A stretch of 63,865 nucleotides of DNA, filler included, from Asterionella formosa (lineage: Eukaryota), in assembly GCA_002256025.1 (NCBI GenBank). It is 16 parts of 16 records of this genome, joined end to end, with 100 filler letters (N's around TTAATTAATTAA, not from the genome) between each part and the next. Parts side by side here need not be neighbours in the genome. Positions count along the whole stretch, not along the records: positions 21,997 to 43,864 come from NKIB01002929.1; 15 more parts are not named here. One strand, 5' to 3'. The position numbers and the translations under genes are program-made. Every line of letters begins with the position of its first letter. The first letter of the stretch is position 1. Below are positions 2,161 through 62,534 of this stretch, in pieces. The notes under the pieces were generated by a model that was not told the DNA's origin, ran no database searches, and worked only from the letters and a program-made list of their open reading frames with translations.

Positions 2161-2306
2161 TAAATGTGTCCATGATGGTCTTGACTGCAAAATTTTGATC
2201 TGGTGACTAAGTGGATGATGTTCCGCTTCATTATGCTCTCAAATGTGGTGTGAGCGATCATGATGTCTTGCAGGCCATATTATCTCATCGAATCCAGCGG
2301 CATTGG
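2161..2306 (+). pseudogene. Inverted duplicated fragment of the ankyrin-kinase gene (copy of 15743-15880)
   Basis: The nucleotide sequence aligns to the reverse complement of 15743-15880. It encodes DDVPLHYALKCGVSD, which is identical in the 2347-aa protein. Confidence 0.9.
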
Positions 2307-2314
2307 CTGGAATG

Positions 2315-7671: not shown

Positions 7672-9737
7672 TGGCAATTCCCGCTCCAGCTATTGTCTTG
7701 CCATTCGGGTAATTCTAAGTAATTTTTAGGCTCTAAGTAATTTCTTAAGTAATTTTTATTTAAGGGCAATATGGGGCACATCGAATTTTTTGGCATTAAA
7801 ATTGCCGATTTTTGCATGACAGCCAGAATAACGGTATTATGCATAGGATGGTAGTACAACAAGCAGAAAACACATGAGAATGATTGCAACAACATGCAAC
7901 ATCAATGAAAATTGAACATGATGTTTGGAGCAACCAAAGTATGAAATGCGATGTAATAAGTTGCATCAAGTGAGAAATAGAAAAAATTGTTTTGGGCTAG
8001 AAAATAAGTGAAGAATTGGAGTTTCAATGGAGACATATGCATTGCGAATCATTGTACTGTACTTACACTGGCAACATTGACTTTCCATCACCACACAATC
8101 AAAGACCGAAAGAAGAAAGAAAAAAGCTGAACCCAATTTAGACCTGCATAGTTATGTAGCGTAAATGGTCTGGTTGCTGCAACCATGCACATCGCTGTAG
8201 TAGCCTGACACCATAGCAGTATTTCCACCACAGTCATTCCTCCGCCCAGCACCAAACAAGCAACCCTGATCATTCTATTCTGAGCAAGCGTGATCGTCAT
8301 GCTGCTCCAGCACTATTGACTGTCTCTAGCTGAGTATTTATGTAGCTTGTGATATGAACTCGTAGTAGAAATGTAGCAAAGTGCGTTAGAACAAGAAAAG
8401 CATTGCTTGGCGGCAATATTGACATCATGGTAAACGACTATACAAATCAACAAATACAATCAACAACAAAACATTGTCAAAGAGTAGTCATCGGGAAAAA
8501 CACTGGTTCTTATATAGATATATACTATCGAAACTAAACGACAGGGTGGAACGACAAACAACGATGGAAGAGATCAAAATGGACCATGGAAGCAATCAAA
8601 TCGGAACTTCGACAATTAGTATCTACGATCACATTCAGTGTTTCACTGTTGTACTCACCGATCTGCTCTAACAAGCGTAACACACAGCAGACAATGGGCT
8701 CATGAGAAAGTCGAAAGTTCCTGTTGCAAGCCCGAATTGAGCAACGGCAGGATAGAGTTAAAATTATAATTGTTAGGACGAAATCGGGCATACGGTAGTA
8801 CGTAAAATCAATCAAAATGTTTAACATTCTGGTCTCGTAAAAACAATACCGTGTCTACAGAGATCATATTATAAAGTGTTCAAAGTAAGCGTTAAAGTTT
8901 AGGTTAAACCATGCATGGTTGTTTTTAGTACCACGTACGTATGTAGACTAGGTGACTACCGGTCGAGTATCCAGCATCATCAGATGCATGACCAGAGCAA
9001 AAACTTGCCGCCAACATCAGATGTATCGATATCATCAATCGTCTGACGAAATATGGATGATGCGACTACATGAATCCCTCGAGAAGACAAGCAATACAAC
9101 AACCAACCGCATCCGTTAGACAATGATTCGCAACTGGCATCATCAGTGAACTGATTTCGCTTCAAACCGGTCATGATGGACGACAATCGGCATGGTGAAA
9201 GGTGAATTTCCGGAGTCCACTTTTCAGGAGACGAACAAAAACGAGGTGAATTCTAGATATAAAATATTAAAATCTGTAGAGTATATAAAATTGTTTCCTT
9301 AAGTAGACCCCTTGCCGATTTCGGCAATCCCAGGGCTGGACAACCGAGGGGCAATTGCTACAAATTGTAATGCCAAAATGCGAAGATAGGAAATATGCAA
9401 AATATATTTTAATGATGGGCAATATCGGACCCATTGCAAATTTCGATGTGAAGATAGGAAATATTCGAAATATATTTTATATGATGGGCTATAGCGAGCT
9501 AAAATTGATATTTACACTCGATGAGTGGGCAATAGGTAAGCGAATGGCGTGACGATAGCTAGTTTGTGAATTGCCTCAGCAATACCCTTCTCGGTGGCTA
9601 CATGCCTTCTCTTACACATGTGTACTCAGCTGGGATGGCACTCGTAGGGTGACCTTCTCGCAGCACCAGGGGCACCACTCGAACACATGTATACTCGCAG
9701 GCATGAGACCACCTTGGGCGTATATTGCCTTCAGCAC
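7672..9737 (-). mobile_element. Non-autonomous relative (copy A) of the tyrosine-recombinase element family
   Basis: 7672-7945 matches 29828-30133, and 9060-9737 matches 33340-34080. The middle is unrelated and shows no recombinase motifs. Confidence 0.7.
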
Positions 9738-21300: not shown

Positions 21301-21656
21301 ACTTTATTCTTATGTTGGCAGACTATTGTGCATGTATAAATTGGAATCATGGCACACACAATCATGCTGTCATGATGCCATGACAATCCAACTGAAGAAA
21401 AGGTTTTAAATCATCCATCTAAATTTATTTGGAATATAAGATATCCTATTCAAAGGCAAAATGTTTGCTCATCTAAATGAGGAAATTATATTTCTTCCAA
21501 TGTGCTGCCTCACTAAGCATTTTCTGCTTCCTCTCTCTAGTGAACTGCAAAAATATATTGTTCCAGCCCTACCCTTCATCTGTTTATATGTGAAGCAAAT
21601 GACTTGTGCATCATCCATACTAGTAAATATCAGCATATTGCTGAAATTGAGAAAGT

Positions 21657-21896
21657 GGGCGCGCTCTGATAATAAAAAATTATTATATCATGTGTGTATT
21701 ATAACACAAATTATTCTGGTGATCTGCTACATAATATCGTCCTTGCGCTCTGATAATAGAGATATTTTAGATTACTTCTCTGACATTATATATATTTTTA
21801 ACTTTAATTTTCAACAGTTAAATTTTCATATCGATGCATCCTCTTGTATGCTATGCCGCCTCTTGTTCATTATATGCATGAGTTCTATATATTCAT
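21657..21896 (+). mobile_element. 5' end of a PIF/Harbinger (PHIS)-type transposon, truncated by the contig end
   Basis: Nearly identical to 47239-47477. It begins with TIR GGGCGCGCTCTGAT, preceded by AGT. Confidence 0.85.
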
Positions 21897-23945: not shown

Positions 23946-25769
23946 TGTTAAAGTATTACCTTTGTTGGATAGATCTATTCGTTTGACAACGAAGGCTATA
24001 GTTAGAGACGCTCGTTTCTCTTTCGTTTCTATATTCTTATTGTGAGTTTTACTAAACTAGTTTAGATTGTTTGGTTGGATAAACAAACGAACTATTCTCC
24101 AAATGCTGTTTGCATTTCTAGAAACATACAATCATAGATTGGACCACTAGTCATATGACGAGTGAGTTCAATCCGAAGCTCACTTGGTGTAGCGTCATGG
24201 TTTCGTTCTCGACTATCAATAACGATTGTCAACTGCGTATAGCAATCATTATTATCATGTGATACTGGCTTGATGACATCAAAAGTAGACTGCTGGGATT
24301 CGCCAAGACACATGTCCATCTCACACTCAATGATCATAGGTTTATAACCATTGATCATTCATTTCAAACTATCGGTCTTCCGAAATAGCCTATATTGTCT
24401 GTCTCATTATAGCCAGAGTAACAACATTAAACGTGTGGTTGATGAGAGCTTGGTACATCAAAGTTGACTCATTCGAATAGTTTGACTCATTTGACTGTGA
24501 GTCATAGCTACCGGTACGTAGATGAGCTCACTTCAAGGTTGCTGCATGTGAACCCCTAGCTCGAGGTAGGGTTTATAAAATAATATTGAGTCAGACTAAT
24601 CAAACACATACTTTTCACATACAAATTATACATGTATAACGCTCAACGGAGTCTTCACCAATACACACCCTTTCCATATGCTTACATACAGTCTTCGGAC
24701 AAACTAGGGGTGTATGTCCACTCTATATATCGTCAGTATATAGGATCTTTTCAGAAACTGCAGAAAGGAACTTCGGTTTTTTAACTAGGCTAAAAAGACT
24801 CGAAATTTCTGGGGAAATCTGTTTATTCGGCATAGTAAAAAACCGAAGTTCCTTTCTGCAGTTTCTCGCCAGAAGTTGTATACTGATGCTATTTGAAAGA
24901 TACCTATGTATCTAAATCGCCGTCAGACCCAGCCAACGTTTAGCTATCGTCGTCCAAAAACTCGACAAAATCGGCCTTTTCTACGGTCGCCAAGATATCG
25001 GAATCAGAACTATTAAGTGCCGAAACGTCATCATCGGAATGGTAGTCGTGTGCCGGAATTTTTAGTCCTAAATTCTCCTGTCCAAAAAGTTCCATTGTAG
25101 GTGCCCGCTTCCACATATACAGTATGATTGGTGAATGTGAATTACATTCCTCTGTTTGATTGGCCTGGTTTGCGAGGTCTTGCAAACCCACGCCGGCCAC
25201 ATTGGATGAACATATAACATTTTCTTGGGTGTACTGACAGTCCGGTGCTATATTCACGACGGGTACCTGGTACCAGTTGATGATCATCATTTGACATACG
25301 CGTACCGCTCCTTGAGTGCACTTTCAAATATTTGCTGATCCGCCGGATCGTATACATTATACATAGTCGTCGATCGGAGTTTAGATTGTAGTACTGGTGT
25401 ATGCACATGAATCGATGTAGAATCTATATATGTATATCTACCGGTAATATTAAACGATTTGAATATTTCGAACGGATTCAATGCATAGCATATAAAATCG
25501 TTAATACGAGTATAGAGTGTCCATGCATACATGCTGATCGTATTTTTAGCGTATATATACATAAACCGACCAAGAGTGTCTCTATATATATTTAGCGATT
25601 TCGACAAGGAATCTATGTACGTATTCGCAACTTTCCACTGATTTAAATATTTCAAGTGGAATCACGTCATTCAAAAATAGTTAATTAAATTCTTAATTCC
25701 AGGGAATTTTTGCAACCCTAAGCAATTTTTTAATTTTTGCCTAGGGTTTCAAATGCAGCAACCTTAGCA
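23946..25769 (-). mobile_element. Solo LTR of a second Copia family, interrupted near its end by a MITE
   Basis: 23946-24535 aligns with the LTR at 54287-54707 (TGTTAAAGT...ACTTTAACA). The last LTR bases resume at 25765-25769. It is flanked by the duplication CCCTGC at 23940-23945 and 25770-25775. Confidence 0.85.
24536..25764. mobile_element. Non-autonomous TIR element (MITE-like), ~1.23 kb
   Basis: TIRs are AGGTTGCTGCATGTGAACCCCTAG and CTAGGGTTTCAAATGCAGCAACCT, with an inferred TA target. Other copies of its ends lie at 51604-52030 and 56543-56725. Confidence 0.88.
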
Positions 25770-26793: not shown

Positions 26794-29513
26794 TCATATT
26801 TCTACTCGACGCTTTATGTCGTCCAACATTTGCAGATCTGTTGGCAGCATCTGTTTATCTCCAGAAAGAAAATTGCTCATGTATGTTATATCACACTCTT
26901 CATCCGGATCTTCGTATTGGCATGGACGGAACAGATACTTGGCTGCCTTACCAAAATTGTACACCTCCAGGGGATCTCGACCTGTTCCATCATCGAGCAA
27001 CTTGACACACTTAGAATTTAAGTCGTAAACAAGAGGAAGCCCATTGGGAATTTCTAGTCCAGTTATCTGATCTTCTGGAATATCGCACAGGTACATCAAA
27101 AGGCCACGAATGGCATTTTCGCTACTCGAAATTAAGACACGCTTGCCCTGGCCCAGCGCTTCTGGAATTATGCGCTCGGTGAAGTATGGAATTGTGCGGT
27201 CCATACAATCTTTCAACGACTCGTGTTTTGGAAGCTTGCGGCGAACAACAATTTTTCCTGCTTCAATTGATCTAATGACGGACTCTCGTAAGGAGTAACG
27301 AACATCATTTAAATTCTGGTAACGGGCATCATTTCCAGGATAATGTTGAGAGAACGATGATACAGCTGGCGGCCGAGTTTTGAAGCCTCGACGCCATTCC
27401 ATGAACTGCTCATCGCCGTGACGCTGGGCAACCATGCGCTTGGAAAGTCCAGTCAAGGATCCATACATTCGTTCATTTAATCTCCAGGATTTGATTATAG
27501 GTAGCCTACAGTGAAAATTGTTTTATGGTGAGTGCAAGGCTAAATCCGAAAGTAAAGGTAGCAGGAAATTAGGCTTACCATAAAGAGTCCATAGCATCCA
27601 GACATAACCACGCGGTTTCAATTGCGCGAGATAACCAGCTGGTATAAACCACATCAAACTCAAACCCATGAAACTTCAACAACCTTCCTGCCTCACGAGC
27701 TTCATCCACCCCGTCTTGCGCCAATGGCGCATCTTCCCAGCCTGTGAAAAGGCCAAGTTTATTGTGCTCTGTCTTTCCGTGGCGAATAATGACAAGAACT
27801 GCATCCTTTCGAATAGGGGTGTCTCCTATAAGCGTTGTAGTTGAAGTCACACATGGATTGCTAGTAATAAGAGAGGGCGATACAAGGCTCTCACCATCCT
27901 CACAATCCTCGTATTCCCTTGTATTCTGCATATTAAACTTGGATTTCTCAACCACAAAACTCAGTGGACTGGTTTCCGGCTTTCGCATGGCATTTTCCCA
28001 AACCTTGTCTTCTACAAACTGCATTGGAAGGCCACCATTCCCATCGTTGCCATCGTCGTCGACTGGTGCATTCGGATCAACGAATCTACCTGCCCATGTT
28101 CCAAGCTCGCGTTCTGCGATCAACTTGAATAAGGAACTTTCCAATGGAGTCAAAGGTGACTTGTTTCTATTCATGGTACTATCATATCCAGGAACTTGAT
28201 TAGACCACTCTTCTTCTCGTTTCAACGCTTCTTTCAACAATCCGGGCTTTTCTAAAAATAAACCTCTCATATGAATCTGTGAAGCCGTTTGAAGATCTCC
28301 ACTTGGAGGCAAAACACGCATTTGTTTGTCAAACTTGTAAATAATTGGAATTCCCGTTGGGATAGCCACTTCCTAGATTGCCAGAAAATACGAGAATATT
28401 AAGTGAGTCTGGAAACAAATCTACGATATGCAACACAACAGCTCCGAAATAAATACCTGAATTTCGTCGGCACCAATATTATCGATCGTCTTGACCAAAC
28501 CACGCAAGGTATTTGCATGCGCGACTACCATGACATTCCTTCCATTACAGAGTTCCTTGCGAATCTTGTTATTCCAAACTGGAGCAGCTCGTTCCATGCA
28601 ATCTTGAAGCGACTCTGTGAGTGGAATCTGGTCGGCAGTGAGGTCAAAATATTTCCGATCTTTTCCAGGCCAATACCTGTCAGTTGGGCGAAGTGCTGGT
28701 GGGCGTGCACCCAATGATCCTCTCCACGTTTGGACTAACTCATGTCCAAGTTGCTCTGCTGTCTCCTTCTTGCTGAGTCCAGTTAAAGCACCTATGATGG
28801 CAGACCAAGGTTAACCCTTGATGCTTCGAAAATGATTCTTTCCACGTTCGATACTACGTACCATACATTCTTTCATTGAGTCGCCAAGACTTGAACACAG
28901 GCATATATTGTAAATTCATTTCCTGTAAAATAATCCAGGACGATCGAATTGCGCGCTTGAGACGAGACGTGAATACCACGTCAATCTGATACCCTCCTTC
29001 CAACAGTAAGCGTGCGGCATGCTCCGATTCTCGATAGCCCTGAGTAGACAAATCTGGATCTGCCCATCCCGTAAAGGTTTTGTTAGCATTCCAAATAGAC
29101 TCGCCGTGCCTTACCAATATCAAGGTTCCTGGTTCTCCAGGAGGGTCAACAATTCTCTTGATGAGTCTAAACGGAAATTTGATGGCCTTGCGCAATATAC
29201 TTCGCTTCTTAGTCATCATTTGAGCGTACCCATCTTCGTCCTCGTCGCCTGGCTCGTCTTCTCTTTGACGTCGGAATAGCTTGAAGCGTCTAAACGAAGA
29301 CGTCTTGGAGAGATATTGAGAATAGTCCTTATCTGTTGTGTAGCCGGAGAACCCAATGGTTTCTGGTTTGTTCTTTTCGGGCTGGACTGCATACAATGTC
29401 GTTAGAGGAATACATAATGAGGACTTGATAGAGGGTGTGAAGCCAGATGACAAAGATATCACGCCGATTAAGATTAGACATGTCATCGAGGACTGACTGT
29501 TAGTCTTGATCAT
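26794..29513 (-). CDS. gpmA: 2,3-BPG-dependent phosphoglycerate mutase with two tandem PGAM domains, probably plastid-targeted (~830 aa, 4 exons)
   Basis: Exons are 29513-28862, 28791-28457, 28372-27579 and 27505-26794, with GT-AG introns at 28792-28861, 28373-28456 and 27506-27578. It has two RHG motifs (LVRHGES..FTGWAD and IIRHGKT..FTGWED) and two SWRLNERMYG motifs. A signal peptide ends at SSG-FTP. Confidence 0.93.
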
Positions 29514-29827: not shown

Positions 29828-32800
29828 TAGCCATTCCCGCTCTATATAGTTATCGTCTTGCCATTCGGGAACTTCTAAGTAATTTTTAGGCTTTAAGTAA
29901 TTTCTTAAGTAATTTTTATTTAGGGACAATATTGGGCACATCGAATTTTTTGGCATTTCAATTGCAGATTTTAGCATGACATTCTGAATAAAAGTAAATG
30001 ACACTTTTTTGAATAGGTCAAAGAACACCATGGAGAAGAGAAATATTTTGACCATCGAAAAATTCACACAAAAATGATTGTAACATACGATGTCAAAATT
30101 GGATCATCATGTTTTGTGCAATCAAAGTATGATTTCATGATTGAATCATCAACAACAAAGGTAAGCAACAAGATGACGATTCAAGTAAGGAGAGAGCGAA
30201 AGAAGAGAAAAGGAAAGGAAAGGAAAGGAATATAGATTTGGTGAGAAAACCATCAACAAAAATTTTTATCAACTTCAATGTCACAAAAAACTTACCCTCT
30301 GTTTTTCCATCATGTCAGCATCACAGAAATGAATTTTTCTATATGAAGGAGGAGCTGGGGTAATTGTATCTACCGGATGTTGATGGCTGATGCTGTGGTG
30401 GATGGGTGTGTGCTGGAGTTGAAGCCAGCTGGTGGTGGTAGTGGTAGACTGGTGGTGGTTGACTGCTTCTTGCCAGAGGCAGCAGATGATACTAGTATCC
30501 ATGAGGAGGAGCATGGAGCAGGAGTATGGGTGTAGTACATTTGTTGTGGTTGTTGTGCTGGCAGTGAATGAATAAATGAATGCAAATATGGCTGCTGATA
30601 GGAATATGCAATGTTGTTAGGTGGGGGAGGATGGGGACCAGAATGATAGATTGCTTGTTGTCGAGGCGGCGGACCAGAACTGTATATGGATATCAATTGG
30701 AGTTGAAATTGCAACTGATTTCTTGACATCACCAAGCGGAATGAAAGATAGTTCAGCAGAATATTTTTCGGGAAAATGAAGCTGGTCCTTGGTGTCTTTG
30801 CACTTTTCGAAATCTGCAAGCCTTGCTTGATGCTGCATTTCCTTTGATGGCAGCTGGTATCTGGCATTTATTTCAGCTGATCCATGCCTGAATTTATCAA
30901 GAATGATCTTCATAGATAGTGACAGCAGAATATTTTTCGGGAAAATGAAGCTGGTCCTTGGTGTCTTCGCACTTTTCGAAATCTGCAACAAGCCTTGCTT
31001 GATGCTGCATTTCCTTTGATGGCAGCTGGTATCTGGTATTTATTTCAGCTGATCCATGCCTGAATTTATCAAGAATGATCTTCGTAGGTAGTGAAACACT
31101 AGAGTTGACAAGTGAAGAAATCATACTCTGCCTCCTACCATGGGAAGCGCAAGCAACGAGCAGTATTATCCATGCCTGAAGCTGTAGCTAAGAAGTCAAT
31201 GGAAAGCCTAGTAGCATAGCCTTTACCAAAGTAGTCTCCCTTCTTGTGTCCTGCCTTGTATGTTAGTCCTAGCTTGCGTCGGTTTGTAGTACCAAGTATA
31301 TGAGAAGCAATGATGTAGAAAGAGTCACACATGATTTTGCTAGAACATAGTTAGTACGCATATGCATATGTACTGGTATGCATAACAAATAACCGGTTCC
31401 AGCAGTACACACACACATAGTATCATAGCAGAAGTACATACCTTGAGCTCTTTCTCAGGAGCATGTCGCCGAAAGAATGGAGGGTTGTTAGTTACCATCA
31501 TCTTGGGCAAACAGAGGTTATCCCGGTAGTGATGTATAAGTTTCACTAGTATACATGTAGGGTTCCTGGTATCCTTGATCATTGTTCGTTCCTATAGACC
31601 TTGGTACTTCCGCTCAGTATGTTGCATTGTCAGGGCATTATTCTTTTCGACTTCACTAGGATGTAGCACGATGACAGTTTGTAGACTGTCCATCAAACCG
31701 ACTGTCACCTTGTTGAATGGATCCTTGGACTCCGAACGCTTTGCCCATTTTCCATACCATTGACTTGAGGCAATCATCATAATTCAGGTAAGCTTGCGTC
31801 CAGAGTGCACGTAGCGTCCTGTCTTCGTCTTAATCGAACTGTGACGCCATGGGGGCCGGCTTGTGACCATATTCCAATGGACAGTGATTGGCAGCAATTG
31901 CCATTTTTTTAAATGCTTAAATCTCACCTTTGCCACCATTGAAATCCTTCGACAGGGAGTATGGGATACCTTGATATCTTTCAGCCTGGTTTGGGCCATG
32001 TTCAGTTGGTACATTGCTGATGTGATGGCTTTGTCAGATGCAGTTTCAAGGATGACAGGTGATTTTTTTCTTAAACAATTTGGTTGCAAACCAAGGCACA
32101 GAAGTGTTGATGATGTCCTTGGTGGAGTTACGGCATACGCCACGACAAAGTAGATAGAATCAATGGATTGGCTGGTTTTCGTTGTCAGGATCCTGATACA
32201 TACAAGCAAGCAAGCCCAAGGTTGGATTTTCGACAAGAGTTTCAAAGAATAACATCAGTTTGTGTAGCAGATCCAAAAACACCATTGTTTGATTGAATGG
32301 CATTTGCATAGCCTTCAGCAGTTGCAACCGACTTTGGATTCCAGGAATCACGGTGGCACTCATGAGCTCCAGCACTAGGATCAACGACGGCAAAATTTGG
32401 GTAGTACTTTGTGTCAGAATCACATCCGCTTCTGTTGCTGCAATCAGAATGATTACAATCAACAGAGCTGGAGCTTTCAAAATCAGAATAGCTTGTTGCT
32501 ACATCAGAATCTTTCACAGTTGTAGTGGATACACTGCTTTTACAAGGTTCTTTAACAAAGCTGACAATGACAAGAAAGAAACAATGCGACTGTGAGTGAT
32601 TGTAACACCAAGGAACAGAAGCACAATGATCCTACTTCTTCATCATTTTGATAAATGGCTACTAATTCGGGAATACTTGCAGCATTTGCAGCAAACTCAT
32701 TCTGTTCCAATAAACTGAAATATGTAATTGATTGAATATGTTAGGATGAAATCAACAGCACGAGCAGCATGATGGTAGCACACAACAATCATTAACATAC

Positions 32801-34080
32801 TACCAAAGCTTCTTTTTCCCTGCCAGTGCACATAATGACGATGCAGCACGCCGGTTATCATCTTGCTCTTTGCGCTTAGCAGTCTTTGTCACTGCTCTTT
32901 GAGAGAAACGACAGCTTCTAGCTCCCCGTTGTCATTGTAGAATAATCAGTATGTTTGAATTATAATAACATTGAATGAAAACAGAGCGAATCTAAATTTT
33001 AGAGCCGCTCAAAAAGCACTATCAAACTTGCTCGTGAGCTACCATATCTGATCTTCACGTAGAAAACATCCTAAAAAGATATTTTTTGAATTGATACTGA
33101 ACATTATGTCTGAAAATAGCACCAAAATTTTGACATCGATGGCACGAAATTGACTCCTTACCGGCGCAACCCATGATGAATCATGGTATCCAAAAATCCA
33201 ATCAACGATAGTATCAATGAGCACCAATCATCTGAATTGTCAGCGTCCAACAGATCGCTCGGATGATGGATGATGATACTTTTGGAGATCAATTGAATTA
33301 GGAATTACCGTTTTTGCGCCACCACGACGAAGTAGGGATGATGACTTAACATGAATCCCACGTGCAGATGAGTAATCCAAGAACCAACCACATCTGTTTG
33401 ACGATGAGTCGCTACTTCCGTCATCAACAAACACATTTATTTGCTTCTGATTGGGCATGATGGTTACTAATGATTGACTGTGTCAATGCTGTATTTCCGT
33501 CCTCACATCATTTTAAGAAACAAACAAAATCGATGTATAGTATTACAACAGATTGGTGAATACTAGATATATTATTATCAAATCTGTAGAGTAAATAAAA
33601 TGGTTTCCTTAAGTAGACGCCTTGCCAATTTTGGCAATCCCAGGGCTGAAAACCGAGGGGCAATTGATACGAATATTTATACCAAAATGCGAACATAGGA
33701 AATACACAAAATATACTTTGATGATGGGCAATATTGGACCCATTGCAAATTTCGTGTGAAGATAGGAAGGAAATATAAAAAATATATTTTATATGATGGG
33801 CTGTAGCAAGCTAAAATTGACATTTAAATTCAATGAGTGGGCAGTAGCAGGTTAGCGAATGGCGCGACAATAGCTAGTTTGTGAATTGGCTCAACAATAA
33901 CCTTCTTGGTGTCTACCGGTACATGCCTTCTTGTATACATGTGAACTCGGCTGGGATGGCACTCGTAGGGTGACCTTCTTGCAGTGCCAGGGGCGCCATG
34001 GTCAATCTACTTGCACCACCCAGCCTCGAACACATGTATGCTTGCAGGCAAGAGACCACCTTGGGCGTGTCTTGCCTTCA
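29828..34080 (-). mobile_element. Degenerate tyrosine-recombinase (Crypton-like) DNA element, copy B
   Basis: A fragmented, intron-containing ORF runs from ~32935 to ~30370. Across one frameshift it reads ASHGRRQSMISSLVN...RHGSAEINTRYQ (HxxR plus distal H...Y), with IKDTRNPTCILVKLIHHY upstream. Its ends are shared with 7672-9737. Confidence 0.7.
30754..31094. repeat. ~169-bp tandem duplication inside the recombinase gene
   Basis: The unit starting CAGCAGAATATTTTTCGGGAAAATGAAG occurs at 30754 and again at 30923. Confidence 0.92.
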
Positions 34081-35148
34081 GGAACAAAGTAAGTTTTAAA
34101 ATATGTAGATAAAACTAGATCAGATGACCTGACCATTTCGACATGACACTGGCAAAAGCAAAAAACCGTGTGCTGTCCATTTCTTTGAAACACGAATTTT
34201 AAGTGCGGAAGTAATAGCTAACCCTTCATACTCTCTAAGCCTTTCTTCCATTTCAAAAAATGCACATTTATAAAGTTATGTTTGTTTCCGAAAAATCGTG
34301 CATTTTCGGGGACTCCAGTTCTTTTATCAACCACAATGCTCCGTTTTTGAAACCGAAGAGTGACTTATAAATGTGCAACATCATTGATTTCCTCTGCATC
34401 ACTGAATGACTGCGCTTGGCCCTAGTTGCCTTCTTCGTTGTCATTGCTGTTCCTATCACTGCTTTCTTGTCAGACAAATCAGACTCATTCTTTGGAGGTT
34501 GTCTGCATCATAAAGGAATACATTGAACAGAAGCAATAAGCAAACAAAAAGCAAGCAAATTAGCACATTGGAATGACTCTGGGGCTCAGTTGTTGCTTAT
34601 TACTGGCATTGCTACTCATCCCCGAAGACTATGACATCAGAACCTTTCAGCTTTGCCTGTTCTTGCCTCTCCTTCTTCAGTCTCCCAGACACGGTTTATT
34701 TTGGAATTGAATGTGCAGTGAGCGAGAAGAGTAACTGGCGCACATTCATAAAGATGCATAAAGATGATAAACATTCATCCACGACCGGTGCGCCAAACCA
34801 CTGAGTTGGCGATCCGCATAAAAATCCGTATACTACTTTTGTATACCTTTTTACGATAAATTTGGGTAGCGCGTGCAAGAAGCATTCGAAATCATACCTC
34901 GGAGACATATCAATTTTCTACTTTCCGTATATGGGGGAACATGGAAACTTGGAGCCCGTGTGGGAACTCATAATGATATAGAAGCAAAATTACAAGAGTC
35001 CGGGCAATGGAAAGACATACCTGAGCCAAGGCAAACTGTAACCTCACAACTTGAATGGTCTCAAACCATTTGAAGAACCTGTGGATCTTTCTTTGAAATC
35101 AGGTTAATCCTTGAATCAATTGAGCTTATTGCTGTCCTTACAAATCTT

Positions 35149-36957
35149 TCAGAGGAATTCATCCGATACAGATATTCCTGCCACTTCGACCAACTCTAAA
35201 CGAGAAGCAATCCTTTTCGACAATCTAGGGGGGTCGACTAGGCCAGCCGTTGACGAAAGATGGTTGGCAGCTGATACAACGTCAATCGGAGTTATCCCTA
35301 ACGAACTGGCACGTGAGATATAGTAGGCTAGGAAAGCGCGATATGCTCCTTCAGCAGAACGAGTCAAGACAACGTCACCGCAGCGAATCCTCTTGTGTAC
35401 GCTTTCCAACTGATTCTTCATTTCGTCGTCAGCAATTAGCAATGATTTCTGAAACTTTTCATTCCTTTCAATTCCATATCGTTTCATCGTCGTAACCACC
35501 TTCTCTTCGAAAGGCAGCAACACCTGCAACCCTCGTCCGTCCTTGCCAGCTCGACCAGTCCGTCCAAGTCGATGGATATAGGTGTTTTCGCTGTCCGCAG
35601 ACCCGTACTGCACAACCAAAGAAACGTCTGGATAGTCAACGCCCCTTGCCGAAACGTCGCTAGTGAATAGAACACCCTTGCGACCAACGCGAAATGCATC
35701 ACTTGCACGTTGGCGAGCAGATTGGGACATTTTGGAATGAAGTTCCAATATTTGTATGCCCAGACCAACTTGGAAAACGTCCGCGAAAAAGCCAACGAGT
35801 TTTGTGGTGGGAAAAAAGACGACGACCTTGTAATTTCCCAACGTCATGGCTTCTTGGATGATGTAAACAAGCGTAGATATATAGGTATCCATACTTGGTA
35901 GCTGAATATACGATTGTTCAACCTGCTGGTTTGTTTTGGTGGATGTATCTCGTTCATTCACGCAGTCCACCATTACAGCATCCGCCCCGACGATTTCCTT
36001 CATATCATGTCGCAAGGATCGTGGTATTGTGGCTGAGAAAAGTAGCGTTTGCCGCTTATCTGCTCTCGGCAAGTACGTGAGAATTTTACGAATTTCTTTG
36101 GAAAAGCCCATGTCCAAGAGTCGATCCATCTCATCGAGAACAACAATCTTGGTTTCTTTCAAGATGGCGCTGAACTTTCGAGGCCCGAAATTGGTTTCTT
36201 GAATATGATCCTGGAGCCGACCAGGAGTGGCGACTAGAATTGTAGGAAGCCGTTTCTGGAGCATGTTAATGTCCCGGATCATTTTGGTACCCCCGTACAT
36301 TGACATAACTGTGTATTCCTTGGAATGATACGTCATCAATATAGCAGCTTCCTCTGCAATTTGAATGACGAGCTCTCGAGTGGGCGCAATTATGATCATT
36401 CCTATGGAAGCCCCTGTTATATACAGATCTTTGTCATTGGAAATTAATCGTTCCAACGATGGAATGAGAAACGCAAGCGTCTTGCCTGTTCCAGTTCGAG
36501 CTCGACCCATTATGGATGTTCCAGAAATCGCATGTCCAAAGGTTTGCGCCTGAATTTCAGTCATTTTCTCCAGCTTCATCTTTTCTATCAGAGCCCGTTT
36601 GGTAGCCGCATGAAGGTCGGCTCGGTCCCGAAATGTGGTTTTCGATAACAAAGTTGGGTCTTTCAATGGAAGTATTTGAGGCTGCTCATCAGATGAGGTA
36701 GCCGCGTCGGATTGATGTCTAGTTCGCATGGGTCTCACTCGTCCCGACAAGCGTTGAGGCGTCGACGAGGATTCTTCGCCGTAACCATATTCGTCCATCA
36801 GACTTGATCGATGATGAACATGAGTCGAGGGACCAGCATGGTGGCAGAACCTTTTCGTCCATTGGCACTGGTTGACGGTGACCAACGACTTCGCTGTTGA
36901 TCGTAAGAAACAACCGACGATCAGAAACAGGAATTGAACGTTTTTTTGCCCCCTCAT
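35149..36957 (-). CDS. DEAD-box RNA helicase, MSS116/DDX18-like, probably organelle-targeted
   Basis: Motifs: Q motif MTEIQ, ARTGTGKT, PTREL, GG, TPGRL, DEMD, SAT, ARGVD and HRLGRTGRAG. The ORF is open to 37146, but the start at 36957 (MRGQKNVQFLFLIVGCFL) gives a signal-peptide-like N-terminus. Confidence 0.92.
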   Translation of the reverse strand: MRGQKNVQFLFLIVGCFLRSTAKSLVTVNQCQWTKRFCHHAGPSTHVHHRSSLMDEYGYGEESSSTPQRLSGRVRPMRTRHQSDAATSSDEQPQILPLKDPTLLSKTTFRDRADLHAATKRALIEKMKLEKMTEIQAQTFGHAISGTSIMGRARTGTGKTLAFLIPSLERLISNDKDLYITGASIGMIIIAPTRELVIQIAEEAAILMTYHSKEYTVMSMYGGTKMIRDINMLQKRLPTILVATPGRLQDHIQETNFGPRKFSAILKETKIVVLDEMDRLLDMGFSKEIRKILTYLPRADKRQTLLFSATIPRSLRHDMKEIVGADAVMVDCVNERDTSTKTNQQVEQSYIQLPSMDTYISTLVYIIQEAMTLGNYKVVVFFPTTKLVGFFADVFQVGLGIQILELHSKMSQSARQRASDAFRVGRKGVLFTSDVSARGVDYPDVSLVVQYGSADSENTYIHRLGRTGRAGKDGRGLQVLLPFEEKVVTTMKRYGIERNEKFQKSLLIADDEMKNQLESVHKRIRCGDVVLTRSAEGAYRAFLAYYISRASSLGITPIDVVSAANHLSSTAGLVDPPRLSKRIASRLELVEVAGISVSDEFL

Positions 36958-37288
36958 TGGCGTTGTTACAGACTTTGTCTTTCTACAAATAGCCGGTCTC
37001 AATTTATCATGCTTTTGTTTGTACTTTCGCCGACTCAAAAATCGAGATAAAATAAAAGGAGTGAACTTTTTTTTAACCCCGGAGTAGCGGTATTTTACAT
37101 TTCTTTGCATACCGGTACATAGGATTCTTGATGACTGATGGCTCATGAGGGAGGACCAGAATTCGCAGAATGATGTGAGCCATTTTTTCTACTACCGGTA
37201 CAGTAGTCCACTAACTGGTGTACCAGTTAGCCCTGGTGCCGGTATGTTGACAATACCGGCATGTCAAAGTGAGAATCAAATGATCTGT

Positions 37289-37491
37289 GGTTATAAACAT
37301 ATGATCAATAAGTGTGAGATAGACATGGGCCTATCTATGAATGTATGTTCCTATAAATGCCAACAGCATTTGGAGAATAGTTTGTTTGATTAGTATTCAA
37401 ACTGAACAAACCTAACTACAGTAGTTTAATAGAAATGAAAGAGAAACAAACATGTCTCTCTATCTATAGTCTTCTTTGTCTAATGGACAGA
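37289..37491 (+). mobile_element. Fragment of the same Copia LTR family as 54287-54707, opposite orientation
   Basis: Reverse-complement match, for example GTGTGAGATAGACATGGG, CAGCATTTGGAGAATAG and TCTCTATCTATAGTCTTCTTTGTCTAA. Confidence 0.85.
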
Positions 37492-38169
37492 TTTGAAAAT
37501 TTTACAGTAGCTCTAAAATGAATATGAAGAATCCAACAATAATATGACTAGTTGAAGCAAAAGATGTAAAAATAGTTATTTATCAGCCAACTGACAATTG
37601 ATTGATTGTATCAGCAATTTGTGAATTATTCAATATAAGTCAGCACCAACAAATGTGGTGTTTTTTGGAACTTGATATAAAAGCAAAACGCCTAAGTGTA
37701 AAAATAATAATTGAATACATATTAGTGACTTTCAATTTAGCTAATTATGTGGTGAGACCAGGATTAAATGGCCACTGGGCAACAACATTTTGAACATTAT
37801 ACAGTCATGAAGAAGGCTAGTTGAAAAAAAACAACTGTTGCTAACACACATAATAATTGGTTTGAACACACAATTATTTGATAAGCGAAACAAATTTTAT
37901 TTTAGTACATAAAAATTGTGGTTCTTTGACCCAAATAAATTCCGGAAAAAGTGCCATAATATTTTACAAGTAGCAAGAATACTTCACTTTAGACATAAAT
38001 TCGAAAAAGTGTTGTAAAAGGCGTCTTAGATGGTGTTGAGGAGTTTGAGGCAGATGGGAGAAGAATTGGACTGGGGCTTGAGGATGAGCAGGAGGAGGTG
38101 GGTCAGCAAAGGACAACAACAAAACAACTTTACAATCAACAATAGCTAGCTAGGATTATCAATAGGAAT

Positions 38170-40920
38170 GGAATCTGCAGCCAATTTCTTGACATCAGGA
38201 GGAACAACTGCAAAGTCGGAATAATATTTTTCAGGAATTTGATTCTGGCTGGTCCTCATTGTCTTCAAACTTTTCAAAAAACTGCAAGCCTTTTTTAATG
38301 CTGCATTTCCTTTGATGGCAGCTGGTATCTGGCATTGATTTCAGCTGGTGATCCATGCCTGGATTTGTCAAGAATTATTCCTATAGGTATGTAAGGAAAC
38401 ACTGCTAGCTAGAGTTGACAAGGGAAGAAATCGTACTCTTCCTCCTTGCTCCCATGGGCAGTGCAATGAGCAGCATTATCCATATCTGCAGCTGTTGCTA
38501 GGTCAACACATAATCTTCTAGCATAGTAGCCTTTACCAAAATATTATTCCTTTTTGTGTCCTGCCTTGTATGCTAGGAGCCCTAGCTTGCGTTGGTTCTT
38601 GGTGACAAGTATACAAGAAGCCATGCAGAAAAAGATTCACATAAGTTAGTCCATGATAGTACCGTATGCAAAACAAATCACCGGTACATATGCATAATGA
38701 ATCACCGGTGTGTACAAGAGAGTACCACGGTACACAAATAAACTACATACCTTACTAATTTCCTTCTCAAGAGCGCGTCGCGAACGGTTGGTTGCTAGCG
38801 CTACCTGGTACCATCTCGGGCGAAAAGAGGTTATCCCGGTAGTAATGATGTATTAGTTTCACTTTGCATGTAGGGTTGCCGGCATCCTCAATCATTAAAT
38901 TTTTCCCTGTAGACTGTAGACCTTGGTACTTCCGCTAAGTATTTTGCAACATCAGGGCTTTATTTTTTTCGATTCACTTGGATGTAGCACGACAGTTTGT
39001 AATCTGTCCATCAAACCAACTGTCACCTTGGTTATTGAATGTCAAATCGACCCTCTGACACCAAACGCTTTGCCCATTTTCTAAAGCTACCATGGACTTG
39101 AGGCAATCATCATAATTAAGGTAAGATTGCACCCGGAGTGTTCCTAGCTTCCTGTGTGTCTTTGTCGGGATCAAACTGTAACGCCATGGGCTTGTGACCA
39201 TATTCCAATGGACGGTACTTGGCAGCAATTAAAATATGTTTTAAAAGAATGCTTGAATCTCACCCTCGCCATTTTAATCCTTTGAAAGGTAGTATGGTAT
39301 GCCTTGATGAGAAAAGCGTCAGATAAGGTCTTTCAGCTTGGTTTGGGCCAAGTTCGGTTGGTACATTGCCATTGCAATGGCTTCATCAGAAGGACTTTCG
39401 AGGATGAGGGGCGATTTTTTCTTAAAGAATTTGATTGCAAAACAAAGTACTGCAGTGTTGATGATGTCTTTGGTGGCGTGGCGTCTTAATGACAGATTAG
39501 ATAGTGTTGGAAAAATGCGAGCTGACTGCCACAGGACAGGAGTGAAGGGTATAGTAGACACGAGAAAGAACAGTACTACGCTAGAGCCACTACCAAGATG
39601 TACCTGGGCTGACGTGGTAAAAGGCACAACGCAAGCAAAAGCAATCAGAGGTCAGGAAATGATAAAAACGCAATGTGAGTAATAAGATTGTTTCGAGACC
39701 ATCATCTCGAAACAATCCAGTTAACAACTTCTTCGTTGCTATCAATTTCATCAACTGTATTCGATTAACACAGTACTAGGTTCAGGGCCTACGATACGGT
39801 CGATTACTACGGTAGTTGAAACAACAGATAGAATCAACGGATTTGGTTGGTGGCCGTTGTCAGGATCTTTGTCGAAAGAAGCAAGCGAGCTCAAAGTTTC
39901 ATTCTCGACAAGGGTTTCAACAAACCTTGATTCAATGATGGTAAGTGCCTTGGTGTATTTGCGTGTGTTGTGCGACAGGTTTCTAATAGAATTTGTTTTG
40001 TTTTGTTGATCCAAAAACATCATTGCGGGATCGTATAGCTTGGCATAGTCTTTGGCAGTTGAGTGAGACATTGGAATCCGAGAATCAGGGCGATGAGCAT
40101 GAGATCCAGCATGAGGAACAATGATGGAAGAAGTTGAGGAGTGCCTTGAATCGGAATCAGATGTGCTAGTACTGTTGCAATCATCCTCAGAATCACGACA
40201 ATCAACAGAGCTGGAGCTATCAATGTCAGAAGGGGGGGAGGGGGGTTATTTCAACAAAATTGGAAGAGTTCACAACTGTAGATACATTTGGTTTACAAGG
40301 TTCTTTAAAGCTGACAATGACAAGCAAAAAGAAAACAAAGCGACTGTGAGTGATTGCAACATCCATGATGGAATCAAAATGGAAGCACAATGATGCAACA
40401 ATCAACAATAAACGCACCTTTATTCTACTTCTTCGTCGTTTTCATCAATGGCTACTTCTTCGGGAATACTTGCAGCCTTTGCAGCAACCTCATTCTGTTC
40501 AAATAAACTGAAGAATGTAATGGTTTGAATATATTAGGATGAAATCGACAATTCGGTCAGCATGGAAGCACACAACAATATACCCAAGCGTCTTTTTTCT
40601 TGCTAGTGAACACAAGGACAATGCAGCACGGCGGTAATCATCTTGCTCTTTGCGCTTAGCAGTCTTCATGACTAATCTTTGAGAGAAACAGCTTCTAGCT
40701 CCCGTTTCCATTGTGTTATAATCATTATGCTAGAATTATAATAACTTTGAATGAAAAAAGGGCAAATCTATATTTTAGAGCAGCTCAAAAAGCACAATCA
40801 AACTTGCTTCCGAGCCATCATGTGATCTTCACGTAGAAAACATACTAAAAAATTATTTTTGAATAGTAACTAAATATATTATGTCTGAAAATAGCACCAA
40901 AAATAAGACAACAATGGCGC
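38170..40920 (-). mobile_element. Degenerate tyrosine-recombinase (Crypton-like) element, copy C
   Basis: Collinear with 30705-33145, with an extra block at about 39490-39825. It encodes CTAHG..RRKSTISSLVN and the RHG..AEINARYQ region. The probable start is at 40711 (METGARSCFSQ). Confidence 0.7.
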
Positions 40921-41227
40921 TCGTACAGTCCACCTACTCTCGCGCCTCCCCAGGAAGGTCCGGTAGCGCACGTTTTATGCGCCTTTTTAGTTTCGACTCA
41001 CTCCCAATGATTTGTCTCATGCCTGCTGGACAAGATAGGCCAGCTTTCGATAAAAATTACATTTCTTAAGTAATTTATTAAAAAGTTACTCATATTGACT
41101 GATGACGATTTGCAGAATCTGTCTCTGAACACGACTCAGATTTGCTGACTGATGAACGGGTTCAGGAAACCGACTTCTAGGTTTGGAATCCAAAAAGGAA
41201 TCCAAATAGGAATCCTACCATTCTATG

Positions 41228-41340
41228 CTTAGAACTTGCTGATAATCACTAGAATATGCTGATAACGACTAGAATTTGCTGACTATGACTAGAACTTGCT
41301 GACAGCGACTAGAATATGCTGACAACGACTAGAACTTGCG
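41228..41340. repeat. 20-bp minisatellite (ACTAGAAyWTGCTGAcaacg-like), ~5.5 copies
   Basis: A regular 20-bp period is directly visible. Confidence 0.9.
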
Positions 41341-42110: not shown

Positions 42111-42272
42111 GACTAGAAATCTGCTGACAACAACTAGCTAGAAACTGCTGACAGTGCCAAGAATTTGCTGACTACGACTAGAAACTGCTGACTACGACTA
42201 GAAACTACTGACTCTAAATAGAAACTGCTGACTACAAATAGAAATTGCTTACTATGACTAGAAGTTCTTACT
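42111..42272. repeat. 19-20-bp minisatellite of the same family as 41228-41340, ~8 copies
   Basis: Units resemble ACTAGAAACTGCTGACTACG, in the same orientation as the 41.2 kb array. Confidence 0.88.
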
Positions 42273-47235: not shown

Positions 47236-47238
47236 ACT

Positions 47239-48151
47239 GGGCGCGCTCTGATAATAAAAAATTATTATATCATGTGTGTATTATAACACAAATTATTCTG
47301 GTGATCTGCTACATAATATCGTCCTTGCGCTCTGATAATAGAGATATTTTAGATTACTTCTCTGACATTATATATATTTTTAACTTTAATTTTCAGCAGT
47401 TAAATTTTCATATCGATGCATCCTCTTGTATGCTATGCCGCCTCTTGTTCATTATATGCATGCGTTCTATATATTCATCATCGTCGGTCACTGACCATGT
47501 CAACTTTCATCTCATCTCCTGATGATGATGATTATGATGACATTATGATCGCATTGCTACTGTTAGCAATGTGCTATCCACCAGTAAATAGGACGCCATC
47601 GTTCTTCAGGGAAAGTTTGACTGTTGATGAGGTCCGAAGAAGAAGTGGCAAAATCCTTCGCCACGCAATACAGCATCCATTATCGAGTCCATTCTGGACT
47701 TTGTTCAACAGCAAGCATGATGATGCTCTGATTACCTTGTGTGGGTTTGACCATGCTTCTTTCGAGCTCCTACACCAGCTGTTCAAACCTTGTTTTTATA
47801 CCTTCACTCCCTGTAGGAAAAATACGGATTTCATTGTTAGAAATTCAACAACAAAGAAAGGTCGGCAAAGATACTTCTGTTCCATCAGTTGTCTAGCTCT
47901 TGGGTTAGCATGGACCAGGACTCGTGGTTCCTATATGATTCTTCAGATTATTTTCGGATTAACTCATGGTTCTTTGAGTGTTTGGTTGAGGTTTTCAAGG
48001 CGAATGATTGTAAAAGTACTGCTGACACATGAAGATGCCGTTGTGAGACTGTCTACTGTAGACGAAGCCACCTTGTTTGCAACCATGATCAATCAGAAAT
48101 ACCCACTTATAACAAATTGTTGGGGAGCAATGGATGGTCTGAAACTGACCC
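47239..48151 (+). mobile_element. PIF/Harbinger (PHIS) transposon 5' half with a DDE_Tnp_4-type transposase (ATG ~47497), truncated by the contig end
   Basis: TIR GGGCGCGCTCTGAT. The ORF contains DDALITLCGFD, WTRTRGS..LQIIFG, WLRF and CWGAMDG (first catalytic Asp). Confidence 0.88.
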
Positions 48152-49018: not shown

Positions 49019-49212
49019 GTGATCACATAATATAGTGATGATCAGGAATGCATGCATGATACTTTGATCAAATATTTAACGTGATGTATTCAGATAATAT
49101 ATAGATATTTTCAACTACGTATTTTGATGTATTCAACTAATTCATGTGATGCATTCAAAATCAACTAGTCTTATTTATGTGATGGTCAGTTCACGTAATA
49201 CACGGCTTTGAT

Positions 49213-49586
49213 GTGGTCCTCAAACATGTCCTTAATACTGCAAAACAAATCAATGATCGCAAAGTTCGCCTCTGCGTGAATGGCAGTTTCCAAATCAAAG
49301 GAGTAGATTACACTGAATCTTTTGCACCAACCATCTTGGCTATGTCTATCAAAGTTTTTCTCGCCTTTGTTATATATCTGCATTATGATTTCTACCATCT
49401 TGATATTAGCAATTCATTTAAAAATACCCCAGCACTTCCCAATGAAGCTGGCAATCGCATTTGGCTCAGAATGTTTCCTGAGTACATCCTATGGTTTTAA
49501 ACTAGATTCCCTACTGAATATGCGTCAATGACTAAAACACTCCCGGATAGTAACAAATATCCATGGAAAACTCTTGGAGTCGAAAT
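49213..49586 (+). mobile_element. Copia reverse-transcriptase fragment
   Basis: KVRLCVNGSFQIKGVDYTESFAPT...HLDISNSF matches the RVT_2 N-terminal motifs. There is a premature stop at 49500. Confidence 0.85.
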
Positions 49587-49686: not shown

Positions 49687-50185
49687 ATTTTTTGAAAGTG
49701 TATCACCAGTCGCATAATTAAACACTGCCAAAGCATAGAATTGCAACAAAGTATAGTCTCTGGGCATATTATCTAGTGTCGACTGCTGCAACCATGACAT
49801 TGCCAATTGTTGTGAGGAGCCAATAGTTGAATGTGCTGTTCCATTATCAGATGAATATTCAGCCAAGAAATCAAACAATGGCGATAATGTAGGAGATAAT
49901 GTAGGAGATGGCGGTTTGAGATTCCATATGACAATAGCAATGATGGCACCTACGATGCCAATCATCACAAATGTTGCCAAGACTTTCCACCCTTGACGCC
50001 GACAATAGGCTTTTTCAGCTGCTTCATGATCAAAAATGGAGGCACTTGGAATCTCAGAATCGTCCACAAGAACAGCTTTGAATAGTGATTCAGGTTCCAC
50101 CTGCTCAAGTTCATCCTGAACGTTGTTAGTGTTAGTGGGAGCACTATATAGTGAAAGTGGTATTTGATCTGGCTGCATCATGCTC
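49687..50185 (-). pseudogene. N-terminal fragment of a diatom-type single-pass membrane (LRR receptor-like) protein
   Basis: An acidic N-tail, a TM helix (VLATFVMIGIVGAIIAIVIW), an SPT stalk, then SSQQLAMSWL...LLQFYALAVFNY. This cap motif usually precedes LRRs in diatom proteins. Confidence 0.6.
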
Positions 50186-50600
50186 ATCAACATTGCCTTG
50201 TTGCTTTGCTTCAACTGACTCTTTTTTGAATGATTCTAAAAACTTTTGTTTTTCTTGATGGTAGATTTGAGGTAGAACTTCTGATGCCTGCTCTGCACCA
50301 AATAAAATGAAATCATGAAACTTTCGAATATTTGAAAATGAGCATATTTTCCCATTTGATTTTCGCTTCGCAGAGCTAAGAAATGCTTTGATGGGAGTGA
50401 CATTGATCCCATTGTACTTTAAGTCTTCTGTGTTTGTGCATTGGAAATGTGTTGGAAAAAATTTGGGTTTCTTGCATGCTCTTGAGAAATTGAAATAACT
50501 CCACCAGCTGCAGTATACTGAGGGTATTGCTCTTTCAACCATTGAATTATTATCTTCAATCTGTTGTGGTGTTCCTCTTTTGTTTTCAGCTTTCACCTGT
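50170..50600 (-). mobile_element. N-terminal fragment of a CryptonS-like tyrosine recombinase
   Basis: LKYNGINV..IKAFLS...SFSNIRKFHDFILFGA...FLESFKKE...AKQQGNVDE resembles, from recollection, the core-binding region of stramenopile Crypton recombinases. The catalytic part is absent. Confidence 0.5.
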
Positions 50601-56172: not shown

Positions 56173-56542
56173 AAATGCAATGCAAGGTCGATTTTAGATA
56201 AAACATTGTTCGAGCATTGCCACCGCATCAACCAAATACCAAGCCAATTGAAGTTGCGGGTCGTGATGCGTTGTGTTGGTCGAAAAAGCAAAAATATTTT
56301 AGCCACCGCATCGACCAAGACCAAATATGCTTTGGTCTTGATCGAGGATGACCCCCTTATCGACCAAATATCAGGTGTTTGGTTGATTGGACTCCGACCG
56401 TAGCCAAATAAAAGGAGTATTTCTATTGGTTTAGATTGTGGCTAGCGCCGGCAACATAACGTCAACAACTGTTTAATTGATCCACAAACGCTTACAATAC
56501 ACATTTACCTTACTCTCTTGATGTAGACAAATAATGAACTTA

Positions 56543-56725
56543 AGGTTGCTGCATTTGAACCCCTAGGCAAAAATTAAAATATTGCTTAGGGTTGCGAAAA
56601 TTCCCTGGAATTAAGAATTTAATTAGCTATTTTTGAATGACGTGATTCCATTTGAAATATTTGAATCAGTGGAAATTTGCGAATACGTACATAGATTCCT
56701 TGTCAAAATCGCTAAATATATATAT
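56543..56725 (-). mobile_element. Right end of a third copy of the AGGTTGCTGC MITE
   Basis: Reverse complement of ~25583-25764, preceded by TA. Confidence 0.88.
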
Positions 56726-62434: not shown

Positions 62435-62534
62435 NNNNNNNNNNNNNNNNNNNNNNNNNNNNNNNNNNNNNNNNNNNNTTAATTAATTAANNNNNNNNNN
62501 NNNNNNNNNNNNNNNNNNNNNNNNNNNNNNNNNN

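Follow-up and report, generated by a model that had tools for sequence, protein, structure and literature searches.

Cryptons are DNA transposons whose sole mobility enzyme is a tyrosine recombinase (YR), and in the literature searched they are described as having short direct repeats and no terminal inverted repeats (TIRs), the listed exception being CryptonF-2_PI with its 602-bp TIRs (PMC3212892). The 2011 table of the same paper gives the short terminal direct repeat as undetermined for all CryptonA and CryptonI elements, one diatom element is listed, CryptonS-1_PTri (repeat CTGTAAG), and a circular DNA intermediate is proposed, not demonstrated (PMC3212892). The mechanism of Crypton transposition has not been demonstrated experimentally (PMC13565253). 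In DIRS-1, an internal complementary region (ICR) of 88 bases is complementary to 33 and 55 bases of the two ends and is essential for transposition (PMC7192593), and in CTX phage, whose DNA integrates in the form of a folded single strand, two inverted sites ~90 bases apart make up the attachment site, where one strand pair is exchanged (PMC3089051). Here we analyze a stretch of 63,865 nucleotides from the diatom Asterionella formosa (assembly GCA_002256025.1), which consists of 16 parts of 16 records joined by filler letters and is called the window throughout, and a family of elements in it that we name the A/B family after its two recombinase-bearing copies. The whole is best explained as a family of ~4.2-kb DNA transposons that have a five-exon, DUF3504-like YR as their sole enzyme and that moved, with an abundant gene-less derivative served in trans, an explanation that we hold to be probable. 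In its core this agrees with the initial annotation of the locus, which had proposed a Crypton-like family of DNA transposons with several copies, with introns and with a YR as the only enzyme.

Comparison of the window with itself shows two minus-strand copies, A and B, collinear and in the same orientation on either side of a DEAD-box helicase gene, as first described; the extents given at that time (30705-33145 and 38170-40920) were too short, and the copies reach from 29830 to 34081 and from 38033 to 40920. They are 73-74% alike including gaps (blastn), with 1876 of 2324 aligned columns identical. Regions just outside 30705-33145 also match 7674-7831 and 9045-9734, which belong to a third copy, C, that shares ~690 bp of 5' end and ~270 bp of 3' end with the full element and has no detectable YR remnant in its interior. 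Stops and indels riddle both A and B, and copy A bears a 172-bp tandem duplication at 30746-31094, over the His-Tyr region.

Better-preserved copies were found in metagenomes. The last-exon peptide retrieved six metagenome proteins at 73-82% identity, and the alignment of these six led to three loci (L001, L002 and L003) among 110 pattern matches. L002 (4374 bp) can be aligned with almost the whole of copy A and also with copy B, with exon identities of ~85% (A) and ~91% (B), and relative to it the two main exons contain 9 (A) and 23 (B) frame-breaking indels. L003 has a stretch of 297 bases in common with another part of the window and one of 96 bases in common with L001/L002, both at 100% identity, which suggests the same species, and the sequencing runs containing the stretch are, where labelled, mostly algal, lake or freshwater. 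In the main exon, copy A differs from L002 by 0.141, 0.069 and 0.228 at the three codon positions, the third being highest, and the differences of copy B are even (0.097, 0.075 and 0.108). By these patterns, copy A belongs to another once-functional subfamily than L002, and copy B is a decayed member of the L002 subfamily; their placement in different subfamilies implies that A and B are independent, dead insertions.

Two collinear copies lying near each other could also be the product of a segmental duplication of a host gene, or of a composite element with the helicase as cargo. This explanation is already refuted and keeps practically no probability, because A and B come from different subfamilies, copy A is bounded by two termini that leave the helicase outside, and these termini are shared with dispersed copies in unrelated flanks. 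The initial annotation had held out such a duplication as its own refutation, and the finding of discrete shared termini disposes of it. The helicase is a host bystander outside the termini of copy A. A different repeat adjoins YR-family sequence, both times with the same one of its ends (...CGTCTTAGATG), at 37487-38032 of the window and at 2003-2538 of L003; since the positions and orientations relative to the YR gene differ, these are independent insertions into the YR family, and the one in the window is probably the cause of the 3' truncation of copy B. A solo long terminal repeat (LTR) lies within copy B where no LTR had been noticed, but it is a later insertion foreign to the element, for which the earlier statement stands.

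Four GT-AG introns were mapped in the YR gene. The family does contain introns, and the GTATGT donor at 31441 and the TACTAAC motif are present where the initial annotation put them, but it had recognized one intron of at least four, and the TAG near 31340 that it took for the acceptor is not the conserved one: L002 has no AG between the branch point and 2672, and the conserved acceptor is actually at 31285 (AG lost in copy A) and at 38598 in copy B. Introns 1-3 splice in frame in L001, yielding 397 codons without a stop, and none of these three has a length divisible by three. With intron 4 removed, the exons join gap-free in the alignment with the relatives P0031 and P0046, and the intron-4 position also holds an intron in five distant relatives (P0012, P0023, P0067, P0117 and P0132), which run into it or retain it. 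All four introns lie on the sense strand and are kept in every copy covering them. Farther upstream, an exon-like stretch is conserved across A, C and L002, which likely reflects a further intron or a frameshift. In a single DNA contig, L002 2467 is followed by 2673, where the last exon begins, with 20 bases on the short side; it hints at an intron-less or deleted copy, and we do not rely on it.

The motifs noticed in the raw translation (HG-RR...RHG...RYQ and P-C-VKLIHHY) are indeed present in the copies, and the spliced model aligns the catalytic R, K, HxxR, H and Y with those of 12 relatives. In a larger set, counting the sequences that cover each column, the residues are conserved in the order R (77/82), K (28/32), H (8/16), R (16/16), H (15/17) and Y (12/13). 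The set R-K-HxxR-H-Y is intact in L001/L002, and in copy A the first Arg is changed to Gln at 31727. Pfam finds nothing in the raw open reading frames (ORFs) of copies A/B in the window, and Rfam nothing over the window. The main-exon product matches DUF3504 at E=0.0035, and among 26 family members DUF3504 is the commonest match (6/26, best E = 5.3e-05), followed by Phage_integrase (3/26), all below the family cut-offs; the same 26 members give no match to NDC10_II, and scans of P0001 and its relatives none to GCR1_C, the CryptonF domain. Searched against solved structures, the family profile finds XerA, the staphylococcal and Tn1549 integrases, XerD, IntI4 and QRICH1.

For the fold we modelled a full-length relative, P0163, whose predicted local distance difference test (pLDDT) values are mostly above 80 over residues 1-370. 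It matches Cre (Z 14.5, 276 aligned residues, root-mean-square deviation 5.3), XerH (Z 14.0), XerA (Z 13.2) and QRICH1 (Z 12.5), with Ndc10 at Z 6.5. The family's own main exon, modelled at a mean pLDDT of 85, finds QRICH1 first and Cre second, more weakly and with the last exon missing; Foldseek places QRICH1 at the top for both models. Core-binding and catalytic parts of a tyrosine-recombinase fold, which the initial annotation had singled out for a structure test, are recognised in the two models, the last exon of copy A matches the family profile (probability 95), and the C-terminal tails of the relatives are low-complexity and unconserved. As modelled, the fold is Cre/Xer-like and nearest to DUF3504/QRICH1, and the family makes up a distinct lineage nearest to DUF3504/CryptonA, the family tree covering family members only and no reference Cryptons.

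A profile search of 1.84 billion representatives returned 267 matches at E<=0.001, and among the best 150 of these the full-length relatives are 23-32% identical to the spliced model. The named relatives are gene models labelled Psemu1, which we take to be Pseudo-nitzschia multiseries; one atlas cluster of relatives is mostly Bacillariophyta, and the best atlas cluster match is DUF3504/KIAA1958-like. With the labels of the metagenome runs, these relatives point to a freshwater diatom as the probable host of the family. No relative of the protein was found in IMG/VR, and P0137 had no tblastn match among phages. Terminal-motif scans of viral and prokaryote collections gave six loci, all of them chance matches without further homology. 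A fragment of a second recombinase-like family is found at 50147-50599; it is unrelated to the A/B family by profile, as had been supposed of the 50.2-50.6 kb fragment (hhalign probability 0.14, no profile match). Its "CryptonS-like" label is that of the initial annotation, and the atlas yields no match for it.

The ends of the element have the layout a-loop-a'-b...b', a split inverted repeat in which ~95 internal bases (a' + b) are the mirror image of the junction b'|a predicted for a circle. Copies A (34081) and C (9734) extend 192 and 160 bases beyond b to a shared CTGAAGG start (two window matches vs 0.08 expected), and the same 5' continuation is seen in 75 and 29 contigs of two DNA runs (agreement 0.82 and 0.75; loose ends, L002 position 19). 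The 3' terminus is sharp: beyond ...GGGAAT(T/G)GC the sequences flanking A, C and L002 differ from one another, and contigs placed on L002 break at 4029/4030, where agreement is only 0.38-0.40. The arms a/a' are identical at 37/60 positions in A and 39/60 in C, and b/b' at 24/38 and 28/38; 2 of 3000 random window pieces were as good for a/a' and none of 3000 for b/b', and when the arms were tested separately against shuffles at most 3/3000 scored as well. The b/b' pair also overturns the initial statement that no TIR is present. The a-loop-a' hairpin of copy A folds with a z of -2.6. Aligned with the internal stretch, the junction scores 85 in A and 96 in C, the best of 500 shuffles reaching 60, and once the ends are joined in silico the pairing of b'|a with a'|b runs through the junction without a break, copy C matching 9 bases across it and its joined ends forming one long hairpin (z -4.9). 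Neither A nor C has a target duplication, a 4-6 bp terminal direct repeat is present in 0/2 complete copies (A and C), and a short ATATTGCCC-like motif recurs near both ends in direct orientation. In L002 (42-76, 1-19) the internal b is closer to its own 3' end than in A/C and the 5' extension is replaced after ~22 bases, possibly through b/b' conversion or as an assembly artefact.

The ends are far more abundant than the interior. In run X1 the summed depth is 1.5-2.1 million at the ends vs 18,000-95,000 inside (single contigs about 500-1,100), and in run X2 it is 127,000-243,000 vs 1,100-4,700 (single contigs 125-170); summed depth is not copy number, and these values suggest that short derivatives number in the order of a thousand and full copies in the tens. 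Loose ends at L002 282 and 3866 continue with copy C sequence, and C thus represents the abundant form. In run X12, one RNA contig (loose end before L002 3971) has the 5'-terminal a followed at once by the final 60 bases of the element, possibly a mini-derivative of about 100 bases.

An end-bearing family that far outnumbers the YR-bearing one, with the YR-free interior of copy C, could also be expected if the ends came from a different non-autonomous element, Helitron2-like or a miniature inverted-repeat transposable element, and the YR gene were a passenger; in one Helitron type the terminal inverted repeats are short and asymmetrical and the ends have hairpins (PMC8969392). We think this very improbable, since the same ends are found on two YR subfamilies (A and L002) that diverged under coding constraint, copy C shares the 5' region up to the first exon-like stretch of the gene, abundant derivatives keeping a few hundred bases per end are known for CryptonA/I (PMC3212892), and the 5' base is C here, whereas that Helitron type begins with T (PMC8969392). 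Our preferred explanation is that the gene-less derivative of the copy C type would be mobilised in trans by the family recombinase.

For the full element, the recombinase would join b' at the 3' terminus with a at the 5' terminus, and the resulting circle would insert elsewhere; judged from YR chemistry and the Crypton model, circle formation with reinsertion is quite probable. The internal a'b could pair with both ends of one displaced strand and splint their ligation, so that the splinted strand would offer, for attachment, a hairpin duplex spanning the junction; one strand would then be exchanged, and host replication would complete a copy-out/paste-in cycle. From comparison with the other YR systems, this single-strand splint is the single reading of the repeat that we favour, tentatively and at less than even confidence, a duplex route with a second inverted site being as likely.

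On its antisense strand the element has the internal complement near the 3' end and at about the size of the DIRS-1 ICR, and the reverse transcriptase (RT) of DIRS-1 can act in trans (PMC7192593); the element might then be an RT-less DIRS-like retroelement whose antisense RNA is copied by an RT supplied in trans, with the internal stretch in the DIRS role. This is very improbable, because the four sense-strand introns are kept in all copies covering them, the YR matches DUF3504, if weakly, which the DIRS and Ngaro YRs do not (PMC3212892), and the element has no gag or RT remnant and no long inverted terminal repeat (ITR). The absence of an RT ORF inside the element, read in six frames in L002 and the window copies, agrees with what was first reported. 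The retained sense introns and the missing RT disfavour an RNA route, and a displaced single strand is thereby favoured.

The splint step has a closer competitor in the classical double-stranded Crypton cycle, in which a duplex circle would be excised and reinserted and a'b would be a second inverted YR-binding or recombination site, or a relic. It rivals the splint alone, a'b serving there as an accessory or inversion site, of which the yeast 2-micron circle provides an example. The imperfect repeat arms fit this cycle, as does the ATATTGCCC-like motif, placed near both ends in direct orientation like protein-binding sites, and the active CryptonF-1_cRei excises cleanly yet gains copies (PMC9977147). 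The internal copy, however, is contiguous across the predicted junction (the 9 bases in C), its ~95 bases are much longer than a core YR site, and the 4-6 bp terminal direct repeat is absent in 2/2 complete copies. We regard the duplex cycle as a serious contender whose probability falls somewhat short of even.

Several observations weigh against the transposon model with its splint. Complete 5' ends number only two (A and C), and L002 is without most of the a-loop-a' extension. Pairing is imperfect, at about 62-74% per arm, and no compensatory changes between A and C were seen in a comparison of the two copies by eye. The joined fold is weaker in copy A (z -2.8, level with the best shuffle), and in one test the 5' end of C, left unjoined, did not fold better than shuffled sequence (z -1.05). 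No end-to-end circle joint is present among the joints listed, which come from contigs placed on L002, itself without the true 5' end, and no empty site was observed. Every copy seen is broken, which bears on present activity. There is no spliced RNA joint among the 15 of 97 joints listed, and one RNA contig reads through intron sequence; the RNA contigs (runs X10 and X12) are too sparse to show splicing or expression.

It is conceivable, if doubtful, that Cryptons of the DUF3504 type, across a range from diatoms to animals, transpose as circles of single-stranded DNA, with an ICR-like splint aligning the ends and forming a hairpin site for the recombinase. If true, this would be a eukaryotic counterpart of the single-strand recombination of integrons and CTX phage, and it would stand to the DIRS replication scheme as a DNA-only precursor or derivative. 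The difficulty in defining Crypton ends partly explains why a mechanism is missing, and in this family the ends are resolved to the base, the recombinase genes are nearly intact, the substrate is very abundant and the internal junction mirror is a testable prediction. With it, DUF3504-like recombinases come to include a lineage in diatom-like algae that is broad and deeply diverged, and as a tool a YR possibly acting without target duplication or evident target motif could be useful.

Table 1. Features of the A/B family and of its immediate surroundings, in window positions.
Feature	Position	Strand	Description
Copy A	29830..34081	-	complete element, 4252 bp, decayed
Segment a, copy A	34022..34081	-	true 5' terminus, starts CTGAAGG
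Segment a', copy A	33890..33949	-	inverted copy of a; a-loop-a' is a terminal hairpin
Segment b, copy A	33852..33889	-	follows a' directly; inverted copy of the 3' terminus in sub-terminal position
Intron 1, copy A	32918..33161	-	GTAAGG...TAG
Intron 2, copy A	32715..32800	-	GTATGT...CAG
Intron 3 acceptor, copy A	32561	-	directly before main exon
Main exon, copy A	31442..32560	-	core-binding domain and first half of catalytic domain; R 31727, K 31645
Intron 4, copy A	31285..31441	-	GTATGT donor; acceptor AG mutated
Last exon, copy A	30370..31284	-	H 31142, R 31133, H 31058, Y 31031; then Pro/Gln/His-rich tail
Segment b', copy A	29830..29867	-	true 3' terminus
Copy B	38033..40920	-	both ends truncated, neutrally decayed, L001/L002 subfamily
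Intron 4, copy B	38750-38598	-	conserved acceptor at 38598
Catalytic positions, copy B	R 39056, K 38967, H 38456, R 38443, H 38357, Y 38327	-	R-K-HxxR-H-Y
Solo LTR in copy B	39505..39826	.	322 bp, TG...CA, 5-bp duplication GATAG; later insertion, not part of the element
Copy C	7674..9734	-	2061-bp non-autonomous, non-coding derivative
Segments, copy C	a 9675-9734, a' 9575-9634, b 9537-9574, b' 7674-7711	-	clearest split inverted repeat
DEAD-box helicase gene	35149..37146	-	between A and B; Pfam DEAD E=2.8e-41; start codon uncertain

The window has other features besides the A/B family. Four tandem histidine-phosphatase-like ORF pieces (26794-29513) adjoin copy A, and two arrays of a related 20-bp unit lie ~900 bp apart in the same orientation at 41223-41339 and 42138-42263. 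An open frame of 2358 codons at 11289-18365 combines ankyrin repeats with a protein kinase domain. Remnants of Copia-type reverse transcriptase (RVT_2) are found at 49183-49500 and 61060-62478, and young dispersed repeats pair 21656-21896 with 47238-47478 (99% identical) and 25583-25766 with 56541-56724 (96%).

Measured against Cryptons in general, the A/B family has the YR as sole mobility enzyme, dispersed copies, discrete termini and non-autonomous derivatives; it differs in lacking 4-6 bp terminal direct repeats and in having terminal inverted repeats. Eulor5/6, the CryptonA-derived human repeats, are described in repeat databases as hairpin-shaped, and the literature search, having found no such text, neither confirmed nor excluded an earlier description of a terminal hairpin. 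With the CryptonA/DUF3504 lineage (animal CryptonA, fungal Glomhoppers and the QRICH1/ZMYM derivatives; PMC3212892, PMC13465315) the family shares the YR-only organization, the tolerance of introns, the abundant non-autonomous derivatives and the lack of an evident conserved C-terminal domain. CryptonA, however, scored 8e-12 or better against DUF3504 (PMC3212892), compared with 5.3e-05 at best here, and the available text reports no terminal repeats for CryptonA (PMC3212892, PMC13465315), in contrast to the split inverted repeat of the A/B family; the available Glomhopper text makes no mention of diatoms (PMC13465315). CryptonS of oomycetes, with CryptonS-1_PTri of Phaeodactylum tricornutum (4671 bp), is likewise a stramenopile YR-only group of similar size, and the CTGTAAG repeat of CryptonS-1_PTri resembles the 5' start CTGAAGG, a comparison made by this repeat and not by the full PTri sequence. 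Kinship with CryptonS-1_PTri is possible, but CryptonS has terminal direct repeats of 5-7 bp, mostly TATGG, neither of which the A/B family has, and the family differs from it further in the lack of an NDC10_II match and in C-terminal tails that are unconserved and of low complexity.

An internal copy of the end junction was not found for Cryptons in the literature searched, which left Repbase, Dfam, Goodwin 2003 and subscription reviews outside. The nearest likeness is in DIRS-1, which also combines a YR with internal sequence that is complementary to the two termini in joined form (88 vs ~95 bases); unlike DIRS-1, the A/B family has no RT/RNase H, gag or long ITRs, retains sense introns and belongs to another YR lineage. 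CTX attP and integron attC resemble it in having inverted site copies, a loop of tens of bases and a folded YR substrate (PMC3089051); these are bacterial, and the likeness is an analogy only, with no sequence relationship shown. What appears to be new in the A/B family is the lineage together with its ICR-like split inverted ends.

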